A stretch of 64,000 nt of DNA from Eledone cirrhosa. Lineage: Eukaryota. This document shows, piece by piece, positions 32,137 to 61,809 of this stretch (position 1 is its first letter; every line of letters begins with the position of its first letter). The stretch covers positions 328,042,001 through 328,106,000 of the forward strand of contig OZ024740.1 in NCBI GenBank assembly GCA_964016885.1, given 5' to 3'. The translations under genes and the position numbers were made by a program. The notes beneath the pieces were generated by a model. The model had not been told where the DNA came from. It did not search any database and saw only the letters and a program-made list of their open reading frames with translations.

Positions 32137-32324
32137 AACGAAGGAAATGTGGTAAGGAACCAAGTGGACCATAACGCACCAAAGTACTCAATACTTGAGG
32201 TAGTAGAGTGGGTAATAGGAACCAGTAAGACCCCGACAGCTGAGCTCAAGCCGTTTCGACGGCTAATTCAGAATTAGCCGTCGAAACGGCTTGAGCTCAG
32301 CTGTCGGGGTCTTACTGGTTCCTA
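32137..32324 (-). mobile_element. Minimal fold-back PLE insertion (~54-bp arms, 1-nt spacer at 32270)
   Basis: taggaacc...ggctaattc-a-gaattagcc...ggttccta. The main arm is near-identical to 49689-49821; (TA)n on both sides. Confidence 0.85.
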
Positions 32325-32944
32325 TATATATATATATATATATATATATATATATATATATAAAGATGAGTATTGACGTACGTCAATACTCATCTTTTCC
32401 CATTTCTACGAGGGTTCTTAACTACACTATCAGGCTAAAAATTTCTTTAATTTCTTTAGTCAAAATACGGCGATAGCCTATATATATATATATTTATTAA
32501 TACTAATTAATGTAAATTCCTGAGTTGTATCTCTGAATTCCTTGCCTAGAATTGAGCGTCGAGATAATAATTTTTCTTCCTCATCACCATGGGTGACATT
32601 TTAATTAATTAAAACATTTTTTGTAAACTACATTAAATATTCTAGCACCCCGTTTACTAAAATATCAAAGCCTAATAACAGTGAAGGCAGAGTTACTTTA
32701 TTATATGGTTCGAAGACCATTGAAGAGTAGTCATAAATTATTTTAATGGCAAGTGTAAATGAACGGCAACACTCAAGCTGTGAACTCATTCAGTTCCCTG
32801 TCATTTACGATTAAGCAGTTACTTAATACAGTAATGTTCCTACTACGAAATTCTTCTCTTGTGTTGATATAGCATTCATGCTAGAGGTTAAAACGTCTCA
32901 ACATTTCTTCCCAAAGTGAGTATGAATGTATGTTTGTATCACAA

Positions 32945-33383
32945 TAATTGTTTCTAATTTAGGCATAAGGCCAGCAATTTGAAGGGTAGGGAAAATCGAT
33001 TAAATCGACCCCAGTGCATTACTGGTGCTTTATTTTATGTACCCCGTTAAAAAAGGAAATCAAAGCTAACCCCAGCAGGATTTGAACTCAAAACGTAAAG
33101 AGTAGTAACTCTATACAGCGAAGCATTGTGTCTGATGCTCTACCGATTCTGCCAATTCCACCTTGTGTGTAGCATAATAATTGTTTCTACTTTAAGCACA
33201 AGGCCAACAATTTTTGTGGGAGGGGAAAGTAGATTAAATCGACCTCAGTGCTTTATTATATCGATTCTGTAAGGATGAAAGGTAAATCTAACCTCGGCGG
33301 GATTTGAAATCAGAAAGTAAAGGGTTGTAACTCTATGCCACGAAGCATTGTGTCTGACGCTCTACCGATTCTGCCAATCCACT
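32945..33383 (-). mobile_element. Tandem pair of Nin-domain SINEs
   Basis: Two reverse-complement units of the 21690 family, with an extra gggaaaatcgattaaatcgacc segment. Confidence 0.75.
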
Positions 33384-33578
33384 GCCTCTGTGTGTATCAT
33401 AATAATAAAACTCATTATCATGGGATCACTTTGTACATCTAGGAAGTGGTAAGAAAAAACAAAGCAAAATACAAAAAAAAAGGATCTTTACATACTTTGT
33501 TCAAATTAAGCTGTTTTATTTATTCACTTTGATTTCGTTATTGATATATATATATATATATATATATATATATATATA

Positions 33579-33843
33579 TAATAAACAAAACAATATAATT
33601 ACCTCATTACCAGAGGTTTCCCGAATAAGACGAATACAAGAAACGTCCGCATTCGTTCGTCAAACAAGGCAATTTTGCCCTGTCTGACGAACGAATGCGG
33701 ACGTTTCTTGTATTCGTCTTATTCGGGAAACCTCTGGTAATGAGGTAATTATATTGTATTGTTTATTATACATTAAATTTAGCTCTGTAACTTACATAGA
33801 GCACTCTTCACTCCTATGACTTTTTCAATTTTATATATAATTT
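33579..33843 (+). mobile_element. Fold-back PLE remnant (arms ~33579-33672 / 33675-33770, plus tail)
   Basis: Near-perfect inverted repeat centred on ggcaa-tt-ttgcc, inside (TA)n. Confidence 0.85.
33678..33745 (+). ncRNA. Type I hammerhead ribozyme
   Basis: ccctgt CTGACGA a-cgaat...attcg-g GAAA cctctgg TA atgagg. Confidence 0.72.
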
Positions 33844-34450
33844 TATATATATATATGCATATATATGCATATATATATATATATATATATATGCATATAT
33901 ATATATATATGCATATATATATATATATATATATATGCATATATATATATATATGCATATATATATATATATATATATATATATATATATATATATATAT
34001 ATATATGCATATATATATATATATATATATATATATATATATGCATATATATATATATATATATATATATATATATATATATATATATATATATGCATAT
34101 ATATATATATATATATATATATATGCATATATATATATATATATATATATATATATATATATATATATATATATATGCATATATATATATATATATATAT
34201 ATATATATATATATATATATATATATATATGCATATATATATATATATATATATATATATATATATATATATATATATATATATGCATATATATATATAT
34301 ATATATATATATATATATATATGCATATATATATATATATATATATATGCATATATATATATATATATATATATATATATATATATATATATATATATAT
34401 GCATATATATATGCATATATATATATATATATATATATATGCATATATAT

Positions 34451-34866
34451 AAGATCAAAAGATGGTTAAAGGAGTTCCATATATTTTATTATGCGCATTT
34501 CAAATACAAACATCATCAAGCAATAATATTTGTGTTTTCATCAGATAAAACAGGAGAACATGATATGAAGGCTAAAAAACACTTGTTGATAGTGCAGTTT
34601 TAAATCATATGTTGATTTAAAACTGCACTATCAACAAGTGTTTTTTAGCCTTCATATCATGTTCTCCTGTTTTATCTGATGAAAACACAAATATTATTGC
34701 TTGATGATGTTTGTTTTTGAAATGCGCATAATAAAATATATGGAACTCCTTTAACCATCTTTTGATCTTATATTATGCATACTCCAGTCCCACAAACTGT
34801 AGAGTGCTTCTTATCCGATATCTGCATTGCTTTATTGTACTACAATAAAACTCACCTCCTACATTA
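34451..34866 (+). mobile_element. Fold-back PLE remnant, copy 1
   Basis: ~155-bp inverted arms centred near 34610, plus a ~95-nt unique tail; hammerhead in both arms. Confidence 0.88.
34670..34736 (+). ncRNA. Type I hammerhead ribozyme (inverted copy 34484-34550; duplicates 35625-35691 and 35439-35505)
   Basis: ttttat CTGATGA aaacacaaatatta...tgatgtttgttttt GAAA tgcgca TA ataaaa. Confidence 0.85.
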
Positions 34867-59200: not shown

Positions 59201-59517
59201 GGCCCTCTCTGTGGCTCTAAGCCAGCAGAGTCATAACGACCAGGCTGCTCCTTGACAGTGTAATTAGGGGCTCTAACCCTAGTGCTGTTAGATCGACTCT
59301 CCATATTTCTTTTCAATGGCTGACAATACCTTACCGGCGCCACTCGAATAAGGTAGTTATTTAACCCATAAATGGAGCCCTAACAGGTACTACCACCCCG
59401 GGCCAGGGCAGACCTGGGAGTCATGACAACTAAGGGGTAACTCCATATTCCCCACATCTCCTGAACTCCCGAACTGGAGCCTTGCCACTGGATGTAGTTT
59501 AATGTCATACCCAAGAC
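56201..59517 (-). mobile_element. Full-length RTE-clade non-LTR retrotransposon inserted in (TA)n
   Basis: ~210-nt 5' UTR, single intact ORF, (TAGA)n tail at the stop codon, TA arrays on both sides. Confidence 0.93.
56209..59304 (-). CDS. RTE ORF: APE endonuclease plus reverse transcriptase (1031 aa from first ATG; GTG at 59343 is an alternative start)
   Basis: APE motifs GTLNVRT, AIQEHR, SAYSPT, GDFNAH, QIDFIL, SDHRL; RT motifs [47 protein letters not shown]-terminus [16 protein letters not shown]. Confidence 0.95.
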
Positions 59518-60140
59518 ATATATATATATATATTTATATATATATATATATATATATATTTATATATATATATATATTTATATATATATTTATATATATA
59601 TTTATATATATATTTATATATTTATATATATATATATATATTTATATATATATATATATATATTTATATATATAAATATATTTATATATATATATATATA
59701 TATATTTATATATATATATATATATATATATATATATATATATATATATTTATATATATATATATATATTTATATATATATTTATATATATTTATATATA
59801 TATATATATATATATATATATATATATTTATATATATATATATATATATATTTATATATATATATATATATATATTTATATATATATATATATATATATA
59901 TTTATATATATAAATATATTTATATTTATATATATAAATATATTTATATATATATATAAATATATTTATATATATATATATATATATATATATATATATA
60001 TATATATATATATATATATATATATATATATATATATATATATATATATATATATATATATATATATATATATATATATATATATATATATATATATACA
60101 TATATATATATATATATATATATATATATATATATACATA
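59518..60140. repeat. Interrupted (TA)n array
   Basis: Direct inspection. Confidence 0.95.
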
Positions 60141-60489
60141 TGGTTTTCTAAAAAGAGACGGAGGAGAACGACAGTTAAATAAGGTATCCAGTGCATTCGT
60201 AAAGAACGTACATATTTATTTCTACAAGTCATTACTGATGATTTTAAACGAATGAAATACTTCTAATCATGTTAAAGTTACTTATATATATATATATGCA
60301 GGTTAATTTAATAGAACATATTTTCTGATATTCAATGATTCATTTATTGAATACTGGAAGGTTTTACACGTGTTTCGATACGTCTCAGCAAACGGCCTAT
60401 ATAATCTACATTATTACGTAACTCATTATTCTCCATTATCCGATAGCACGCAACGTACTCTAGAGAAAATTCCTAGAATTATATATATA

Positions 60490-61050
60490 TTATACTTATA
60501 AAAGGAAGTTTGTTTGTTTGTACGTTCACCCCTAATAACATGAAATAAAATAGGTAATGATTTTGGTTTTTCATGTGTTTTCGACTTATTCAACCTCCAG
60601 CATACCTGCAATCACCCCTTTCACAGAAATCGGAATGGTGGAGAGGTAGGGGGTCCCTAGGATTTTCCCAGTCACGGAGATTTCTTCAGTCGCTATTTTT
60701 CTTTCCAAGGTCTTTTCATTTGGTTTCGACCGATCTGACAACCCACTCACTCACCAATAACTCTCCTTTTCCGAAAACTGAGGCGGGGAGGGAAGAGGGC
60801 CCTCGGCGTTACAGATAATCACCTCCCAACCTTTTAAATTCATAGAAAAGTACTTGCTGGGGATTGCGAAAAAAGTTGTTTTTTCTCATGTGTTTTCAAC
60901 TAATCTGACTTCCAACATTATCGCAATTGCTTTTTTTGTCCTAAAAACGGAATGGTGGATAGCCACGTATCACCAAACCCAATTCAAGAACCAACATACA
61001 ATTTCACGGTGACATCACTTTTGTAAAGTTCACTCGAAAACTTCTGAAAC
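60490..61050 (+). mobile_element. Possible Helitron-like non-autonomous element
   Basis: Starts tatacttataaaaggaagtttgtttgtttg; degenerate internal direct repeat ~60567-60642 vs ~60880-60960. Confidence 0.4.
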
Positions 61051-61199
61051 TCGGTGAAGGCAAAATATCCCTTGATACTGAAGGATATTTTGATCCTTCA
61101 TCATTTTGTACTGTTGTGGAAAGCGTTGATAGCTTCAAGTGTTCCCCAATTTCAAGGAGTGGCTGTGTAAAAAAAGCAATCATTGCCCCTCAAAAAAAA

Positions 61200-61809
61200 A
61201 AAAAAAACCAACAAAAAACCCCATGAAAGTTCAGATTGCCGGTCCAGCAAAAATAAAAAATTAGGATTGGTGCTCTGAAATAGCGATGTATACATGAATG
61301 TATGTATAGTATATTTGGCAATATACCGTATGTTTAATTAAACACATTTTGAAGACCTTGCACTATCATTTTAAAGTAGTGACTATGTCACTTACTTCTT
61401 TTTTCGGCAAAGGAAGGGAGAGAAACTGACATATTCTGTTTCACACTGCTGGTGATTCTCCGTCAAAAATTATAGAGGCTGGATTCTTATAGAATCCTAA
61501 TTTTTAATTCTTGCTGGACCGGCAATTGCTCTGTATAATCAGTTCCTGATTATTACTGGATTTCTATAAGAATCCAGCCTCTATAATTTTCGGCGGAGGC
61601 GGGGAGTACGTTGCTCTGAGGGTCACCAACAGTGTGAAACAGAATATGTCAGCTTCTCTCCCTTCCTTTGCCGAAAAAAGAAGTAAGTGACATAGTCACT
61701 ACTTTACACAAGGTCTTCAAAGTGTTTTTAATTAAATATACGGTATATTGCCAAATATACTATACATACATTCATGTATACATCGCTATTTCAGAGCACC
61801 AATCCTAAT
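61200..61809. mobile_element. Fold-back PLE remnant with degenerate hammerhead (61613-61653, plus strand)
   Basis: Arms ~61260-61495 / 61562-61809; gct CTGAGGG t-cac-caaca-gtg-t GAAA cagaatatg TC agc (A9G change). Confidence 0.75.

Follow-up and report, generated by a model that had tools for sequence, protein, structure and literature searches.

The window analysed here is a 64,000-nucleotide (nt) stretch of the Eledone cirrhosa genome (contig OZ024740.1, positions 328,042,001 to 328,106,000). The genome spans 3.0 Gb and is rich in (TA)n, and comparison of the window with itself revealed numerous fold-back insertions flanked by TA tracts. These fold-backs are the pseudo-long terminal repeat (pLTR) ends of Hydra-clade Penelope-like elements (PLEs), together with retrozyme-like derivatives, sited in (TA)n (Table 1). 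The letter of each family stands for the place of its copy in the window: A (34452), B (32138), C (38788), D (33581), E (39623), F (15303), G (48082) and H (61234), plus K (896) and M (28788), the last two absent from the list of a first-pass annotation of the window. That annotation had proposed that one arm of each fold-back joins (TA)n just before a bulged hairpin and the other in a tail beyond it. Copies across the genome end at two fixed sites, a proximal one before this hairpin (hairpin 1) and a distal one before a second, similar hairpin (hairpin 2), and an insertion typically combines a short arm, ending at the former, with a long arm, ending at the latter. The origin of PLE inverted repeats and one-sided tails is stated to be open in PMC11167929 and in the accessible part of PMC8557442.

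Full-length copies of families A, B, F and G encode, as read from motifs, a reverse transcriptase (RT) followed by a C-terminal GIY-YIG endonuclease within one open reading frame (ORF), which in the family A copy is an open frame of 821 amino acids. Intact Hydra-clade frames occur at L161 (1424–3889) and L328 (1337–3472). A Pfam scan of three proteins matched no RT or endonuclease family, and the domains were thus assigned from motifs. All four families have an RWT/RWR N-terminal motif (RWK-type), DKT in place of DKG, and a full CxCX5C linker with CxxC and CxH around the conserved E and N, with CCHH absent; this is the Hydra-clade motif set as defined in the accessible part of PMC8557442. Families C and D match the Hydra-clade pattern in the sequence parts examined, the CxCX5C linker alone of that pattern being seen in family C. 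By these motifs, families A, B, D, F and G, and C from its C-terminal part, are Hydra-clade PLEs. They insert into (TA)n, and their ORFs are of usual length, while their tandem periods of 3.1–3.8 kb exceed the <3 kb to which the clade tends. Family K has a Neptune-type endonuclease.

Hammerhead core motifs were recognized by scan and by eye in the pLTRs of families A, C, D, E and F, and the cores of B and G are altered. At the Rfam gathering score no family, hammerheads included, matched any of seven sources; a scan by E-value was discarded, as the 150 matches listed out of 490 were nearly all microRNA families on simple repeats, below the gathering score. Families E and H lack an ORF and consist of tandem hammerhead monomers, of 518 nt and ~314 nt respectively, in dimers or short arrays, the family E monomer exceeding the 150–450 nt range of retrozymes. 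Their tandem ORF-less units with a predicted type I hammerhead mark both as retrozyme-like. The putative RNA start lies within the hammerhead in family B and at its beginning in family G, and both cores deviate from the consensus (L081, L320); because of this start and core, family B RNA initiated in the pLTR would lack an active ribozyme. At 5 of 25 family F loci (L229, L233, L234, L235, L242), a short interspersed nuclear element (SINE)-like repeat occupies one site just before the hammerhead core. It belongs to the same family as the repeats at window positions 40496–40821 and 21679–22075, and the copies differ in 5′ truncation, which suggests recurrent independent insertion into the PLE promoter region.

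Table 1 Insertions and associated features in the window, with families lettered as in the text.
Feature	Coordinates	Strand	Arms and hairpins	Remarks
Family K fold-back	896..1990			Neptune-type endonuclease fragment 1090–1452; two fixed ends, 57 nt apart, without a GCTC/GAGC hairpin
Family F fold-back	15303..15676		hairpin 1, long loop, at 15553–15629	
Second family F insertion	15698..16434	−	long-end arm plus upstream body	
Family B relative	16698..16880		long arm (−); hairpin 1 at 16740–16763	73% identity; short arm ends within hammerhead
Family M insertion	28788..29787		long end on inverted arm; short end on tandem main arm	
Family B fold-back	32138..32322		long arm 32138–32269 (−), short arm to 32322 (+); hairpin 1 at 32186–32209 (−)	
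Family D fold-back	33581..33831		hairpin 1 at 33782–33802	minor-class ends on both sides
Family A fold-back	34452..34864		short arm 34452–~34607 (−), long arm ~34605–34864 (+)	Hydra clade by motifs
Type I hammerhead-like motif, family A	34676..34745	+		core from 34676; 3′ limit approximate; motif scan and inspection
Hairpin 1, family A	34781..34805	+		hairpin 2 outside the insertion, 90 nt downstream in read-through copies
Tandem duplicate of family A insertion	35407..35819		hairpin 1 at 35736–35760	422 nt, 100% identical
Family C fold-back	38788..39234		hairpin 1 at 39146–39170	
Family E fold-back	39623..40169		long arm (−); hairpin 1 at 39693–39723 (−)	518-nt tandem hammerhead unit, retrozyme-like
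Family G fold-back	48082..48307		hairpin 1 at 48225–48269	
Family F short-end arm	48665..48789	−		
Family B long-end arm	49690..50914	−	partner arm not visible	1.2 kb
Tail-only inverted arm with 5′-truncated ORF	51883..52912		inverted arm 36 nt; ORF 51980–52912 (+)	Hydra-type endonuclease end; motifs by eye
Family H insertion	61234..61807			~314-nt tandem hammerhead unit, retrozyme-like; distal end at 61807

Seven of the eight junctions originally listed in the window check out to within 1 nt. With shared bases assigned to the element, the short arm ends 7 nt before the hairpin at 34452 (8 in the first-pass annotation), 5 at 38788, 11 at 33581, 5 at 32322, 3 at 40169, 2 at 48082 and 7 at 15303, the junction at 48665 being the same as the last. 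Measured to the start of the TA run, the gaps are, in the same order, 12, 9, 15, 8, 7, 6 and 7 nt. The main arm does extend past the hairpin as described, over a wider range than the 40–70 nt given: the hairpin end lies 59, 64, 29, 48, 70, 38 and 47 nt from the distal TA, again in that order. The eighth example, at 61200, is no proximal junction; its TA junction at 61807 is a family H distal end, what was taken for the hairpin is a simple stem of another type, and the second arm continues into the following unit, where it ends near 61234 with no TA tract. The one exception already noted holds, as the short arm of the 16698 element stops at 16880 in the palindromic hammerhead loop with no TA tract after it. 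The family A copy at 35407..35819 is an exact tandem duplication and represents no independent insertion event.

End-points were collected genome-wide by exact matching of anchors taken from the sequence upstream of the proximal site. Exact matching was preferred because family A, as query in a DNA similarity search of its own genome, gave no match, although 2274 exact pattern matches exist. Anchors matched 3596 times for A, 10989 for B, 857 for C, 2129 for D, 24 for E, 4043 for F and 37984 for G. The loci examined numbered 24–30 per search plus extra regions, nearly all among the first 100 places listed and mostly on one chromosome; they were de-duplicated by a sequence key, imperfectly, and a few may count twice. 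Of the 10989 family B anchors, 5183 continue into the hairpin and 4861 meet TA at the proximal site, together 91%, which chance does not explain. Across families A, B, E, F and G, 364 of 381 TA-joined ends lie 2–12 nt before hairpin 1 or hairpin 2 (A 93/96, B 145/148, E 25/26, F 22/25, G 79/86), with modal distances of 5–9 nt and junctions that mostly share 2–4 nt with the TA run. The end-point distribution relative to the hairpin, which the first-pass annotation had put forward as a check, thus resolves into two fixed sites. Family G distal ends fall at −6 by sequence, a difference in ATT-repeat length in the reference copy giving −3. In family C, 20 of 29 ends are proximal and 7 distal. Among 18 family D short arms, 12 end at −8 and 3 at −15; the 33581 copy, with its 11-nt gap, is accordingly a genuine junction of a minor class, and its long arm falls some 19 nt short of where the distal end of family D lies. 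In family H, the ~314-nt unit has two ends ~25–30 nt apart, distal at ~314 and proximal at ~283–290. Insertions thus have two fixed ends and an extension on one arm only, this tail measuring 76–135 nt in families A–G, ~25–30 nt in H and 57 nt in K.

The ends might instead be set by the nearest TA-like tract, through microhomology or later slippage, the hairpins being irrelevant. The 2–4 nt shared with (TA)n would fit, as would the three family D short arms, which end at an upstream TATA. However, insertions hardly ever end at the longer TA tracts that lie downstream of the anchors: in family G those at +13/+23 were used once in 86 ends, in E that at +7 in 0 of 26, and in F those at +70/+105 in 0 of 25. 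Family B uses two of its four TAT/ATA triplets, and an ATATAT tract at −45 in family A falls inside the anchor and was not counted as unused. Microhomology alone therefore fails as the cause of the end-points, and it could not produce the one-of-each pairing described below. As a sole cause, the nearest tract is refuted and we give it almost no credence; microhomology still acts locally, as family D shows at −15. That the hairpin acts as a ruler, as originally suggested, agrees with these counts.

Read-through tandem copies reveal what lies beyond the distal end. In families A, B, D, E, F and G, which are all the families having both hairpin 1 and a read-through copy, hairpin 2 starts 5–7 nt past that end (6/6; background for such a hairpin at that offset, 0.011 per site). 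The two share a frame of RYTC, a stem-loop, a 2-nt 3′ bulge and GARY, with loops of 5 to about 70 nt; hairpin 2 of family E is the weakest of the six, its outer pair mismatched. The distance from hairpin 1 to hairpin 2 corresponds to the 76–135-nt tail. Both ends thus obey one rule, each lying a few bases before a hairpin of the same kind. Hairpin 2 is absent from the insertions, and from the window, because copying would begin upstream of it. The downstream tail had been taken for a priming site; the distal end is indeed fixed, but there is no free tail, as the site precedes the second hairpin. At L447:368-600, a family D 5′ pLTR has lost both hairpins to an internal deletion that retains the ORF start. 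By eye, a short motif is duplicated in K (896–1990) and in M (28788–29787), one copy coming after each end, with read-through in family K being seen only in a related copy, L210.

The hairpin pair also occurs in foreign Hydra-clade PLEs. An alignment search of metagenome contigs gave 77 loci, of which 44 were kept once identical ones and those with less than 170 nt ahead of the N-terminal K[ND]IP motif had been dropped; near-duplicates among them mean that they are not independent species. Two GCTC…TH-GAGC hairpins, 57–83 nt apart, are present in 30 of the 44, a further 8 having one and 6 none. Same-size windows in the ORF interior gave 2 singles and 0 doubles; they were used in place of the reverse complement (13 singles, 0 doubles of 44), a weak control as the motif is partly self-complementary. 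Hairpins were matched by sequence only, with inner pairs counted afterwards; the inner positions pair in 69, 49 and 47 of 72 hairpins, against shuffle means of 54, 29 and 28, counts reached by 0 of 2000 shuffles. The stems thus covary. ACT follows the hairpin in 65 of 72, and the first inner pair mostly tells hairpin 1 (T-A) from hairpin 2 (C-G). Of 41 second-copy matches, 22 were dropped for a contig or reference end or for want of a strict hairpin; among the remaining 19 internal pLTR ends, 13 stop 0–5 nt before a hairpin, and 7 of 8 with a TA flank do so. In the accessible part of PMC8557442 File S7, inspected by eye, both hairpins stand at the start of the Hydra-1_Ajap consensus, hairpin 1 followed by the tail closes Hydra-2_Amil and Hydra-2_Ajap, the hairpins of Hydra-1_Crog are altered and Hydra-1_Amil has none that we could see.

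A DNA-level origin of the ends would be that they are endonuclease cuts resolving a DNA intermediate, with GCTC/GAGC as DNA recognition sites and the tail as the stagger between cuts. Such a resolution is put forward for the tail in the accessible part of PMC8557442, the D. virilis endonuclease required the tail for cleavage (as reported in PMC11167929), and both ends lie at TA-rich spots, which the enzyme prefers. The variable loops, one-sided 2-nt bulge and covarying inner pairs nevertheless point to a single-stranded structure. Moreover, each arm may carry its own extra G and stops independently (see below), and the tail ends of a Poseidon element were mapped as RT start sites (PMC11167929). 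We regard DNA resolution as unlikely.

The two sites are used in pairs. In family B, 55 of 56 head-to-head pairs closer than 500 nt combine a long and a short arm (p = 8e-16; two lists, up to 75.9 Mb), and the remaining close pair proved on inspection to be long plus short as well, with a −3 junction. Among the examined head-to-head pairs, long plus short accounts for 33/35 in A, 63/70 in B, 23/23 in G and 7/7 in D; the rest of the 70 comprise one short plus short pair and six in which an arm was left unclassed. The two full-length inverted copies paired at L161 likewise have one end of each kind. By eye, nine such pairs occur in K and ~7 of 8 in H, families without two clear hairpins of this type. 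Two sets of opposite copies share an end class: L048/L049 have identical flanks and reflect a later duplication, and L443/L444 stand tail to tail and are separate insertions.

The arms also differ in 5′ reach. The short-end arm extends further by >10 nt in 36 pairs and the long-end arm in 9, the other 74 lying within 10 nt; the family G part was counted by hand (10 vs 6, 7 equal). At nine distinct loci, the long-end arm gets no further than the tail or its vicinity. Since the short-end arm often outreaches its partner and nearly non-overlapping pairs exist, the arms are best read as independent cDNAs and not as self-primed copies. In the self-priming alternative, one cDNA would fold back, copy itself and stall at the foot of hairpin 1 to leave the short arm. 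Perfect palindromic centres are common and the arms share alleles, as it would require, and the accessible part of PMC3846280 proposes such a model, there on an antisense template. It predicts, though, that the long-end arm always contains the short-end arm, which the 36 vs 9 pairs and the nine loci of near-zero overlap contradict, and it leaves hairpin 2 unexplained; we hold it to be very unlikely. Equating the proximal-site arm with the inverted arm, as had been done at first, is a matter of labelling, the arm that reaches further 5′ being more often the short-end one; at 28788–29787, it is the long end that sits on the inverted arm.

At three polymorphic sites in family A, the arms share an allele in 25/26, 21/23 and 26/26 pairs, against expected fractions of 0.56, 0.50 and 0.38, and sharing holds for arms >600 nt, even kilobases, apart. 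This favours one RNA template. Priming at the two hairpin sites on separate RNAs of the same active source copy would equally give shared alleles if one source locus dominates in the cell, and would spare two RTs copying overlapping sequence. By itself, such a scheme gives no reason for the same site almost never being used twice, nor for the more frequent truncation of the downstream-primed arm, and we think it quite improbable.

The 5′ limits of the arms cluster at initiator-like sites, TC/A in A and C and TT/A in B and G (the slash marking the limit). Of 49 arms, 34 have a non-genomic G before +1, compared with 48 of 201 at other limits (Fisher p = 4e-9), and both arms individually bear one at L166, L171, L187, L225 and L335. 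Cap copying is known to give an extra G in other retroelements. We read the extra G as a likely copy of the cap, which would place the fold-back centre, including that of the family A insertion at 34452..34864, at the capped RNA start. Hammerhead cleavage was considered as the fold-back centre and rejected, as family A 5′ limits show no cluster at the predicted cut (~+123). At L050 and L227/L228, the centres contain two or three tandem copies of the RNA's first ~10 nt, as if the RT had re-copied the 5′ end.

We consider it likely that both ends of a (TA)n break prime on one capped RNA, one at each hairpin-marked site, in a twin target-primed reverse transcription. The RNA would start at the initiator-like pLTR site, as the sharp 5′ limits and extra G suggest, and the element's protein, probably in two copies, would sit on hairpins 1 and 2. 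The endonuclease would then cut both (TA)n strands, for which a Poseidon relative provides an in vitro precedent. Each 3′ end would pair by 2–4 nt at a UA-rich spot 5–9 nt before its hairpin and be extended. Both cDNAs would head for the cap, and the downstream one, trailing, would more often be cut short, a possible cause of the asymmetry seen in 5′ reach. Finally, the two same-polarity cDNAs would be joined head to head at short homologies, giving an inverted repeat in which just one arm bears the inter-hairpin tail. Short fold-backs would arise from the hairpin pair near the RNA 5′ end and long ones from the pair in the downstream pLTR. The first-pass annotation had arrived at two priming events on opposite target strands; the presence of one end of each class per insertion, the independent truncation of the arms and the extra G at their 5′ limit bear this out.

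Several observations weigh against this account. Seventeen of the 381 ends lie elsewhere, family D has its three ends at the −15 TATA, and in families H, K and M the two fixed ends are not accompanied by a clear pair of GCTC/GAGC hairpins. Seven long loci of family C included no read-through copy. A short plus short pair exists (L137), and the foreign sequences include misfits, namely six of the 19 internal ends and six of the 44 contigs. The +1 sites were selected with the junctions already in view, and in family F no arm falls at the chosen +1, the limits clustering 5 nt downstream. Allele sharing could also result if a single source locus supplied two RNAs, or through gene conversion. The Poseidon-clade PLE of Anolis, PAc, showed no start-site difference between strands (PMC11167929), which neither demonstrates nor excludes pairing within one event. 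The support is genomic throughout, priming, binding and the cap being deduced from it, and the loci are mostly first matches from one chromosome with imperfect removal of duplicates.

In L1 twin priming, both target ends prime on one RNA and an inversion results; the first primer lies at the poly(A) tail and the second at a variable internal homology, and the pieces mostly do not overlap. The insertions here resemble it in two target ends priming, as we propose, on one RNA and in the inversion product, but depart from the L1 type in having two fixed internal sites and copies whose overlap runs as far as the cap. A closer parallel is PAc, for which two internal start sites with the tail in between, an AC-rich stem-loop downstream of the hammerhead, cutting and extension of both target strands in vitro and a predicted dimer have been described (PMC11167929). 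Both systems would initiate internally at two sites near a stem-loop in an AT-rich target, without need for hammerhead cleavage. By contrast, the elements here belong to the Hydra clade, their tails of 76–135 nt lie outside the canonical 30–40 bp of Penelope/Poseidon and the 30–40 nt of PAc, and each site stands before its own sequence-conserved bulged hairpin with one of each used per insertion, whereas the main text of PMC11167929 has one AC-rich stem-loop and no pairing rule.

For PLEs generally, an inverted 5′-truncated copy with a tail often at one end is described in the accessible part of PMC8557442, where the tail is ascribed to endonuclease resolution, and an inverted pLTR, tail and initiator-like motif appear alongside the self-priming model in that of PMC3846280. 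The Hydra-clade PLEs of PMC8557442 share with ours the protein motifs, C-terminal endonuclease, pLTR hammerhead and (TA)n target; the twin hairpin is not remarked on in that part of the paper, and the units here are 3.1–3.8 kb. Non-LTR retrozymes, as far as the accessible parts of PMC7229834 and bioRxiv 10.64898/2026.07.22.740005 describe them, resemble families E and H in their ORF-less tandem units and type I hammerhead motif, but the ends of E and H are paired as in PLEs and both hairpins are present in E, a link between retrozyme-like mobilisation and PLE protein. The words "tail", "hairpin" and "stem" do not occur in the accessible main text of the latter. Our literature searches, whose coverage stopped short of the 2005/2006 PLE reviews and the PAc supplementary figures, found no paper on twin hairpins or one-of-each pairing. 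Part of the feature is thus the known PLE tail found again, a Poseidon element having already been reported with its tail and two start sites (PMC11167929); new here are the twin-hairpin cis-element and the pairing rule.

Other repeats and coding remnants share the window. A long interspersed nuclear element (LINE) of RTE-like type, by its motifs, lies at 56209–59379 (−) with a 1056-aa open frame containing endonuclease and RT. A remnant resembling Tc1/mariner, with inverted ends of 101 nt, occupies 10743–11631, and next to family H, at ~61000–61200, is a fragment that we take by eye to resemble a Helitron helicase. A 560-nt diverged palindrome (80%) at 41036–41597 was not assigned to a family, and a coding stretch with collagen-like Gly-X-Y at 12122–12835 (−) is probably a host exon.

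A broader reading would extend these results beyond the families studied: a clade-wide, previously undescribed two-hairpin RNA element would load two RTs on one capped PLE RNA, every insertion being a programmed event in which the two ends of a double-strand cut both prime, and the same logic with other duplicated motifs would make the tail in all endonuclease-bearing PLEs and mobilise animal retrozymes. We see this as equally liable to prove right or wrong. PLEs are the closest retroelement relatives of telomerase, and the finding names a cis-signal, gives its offset to the base and documents the paired use of both sites, while pointing to the fold-back centre as the capped RNA end. It also provides sequence-level evidence for retrozyme-like repeats moved by PLE protein and a rule for placing PLE consensus boundaries in repeat annotation, and it reduces the question of mechanism to a small set of mutants for the in vitro assay that already exists. 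The twin-hairpin model would explain the long-puzzling inverted-repeat-plus-tail structure of PLEs and, if the broader reading is true, the two hairpins together would serve as a portable signal for RNA-templated insertion from two ends.

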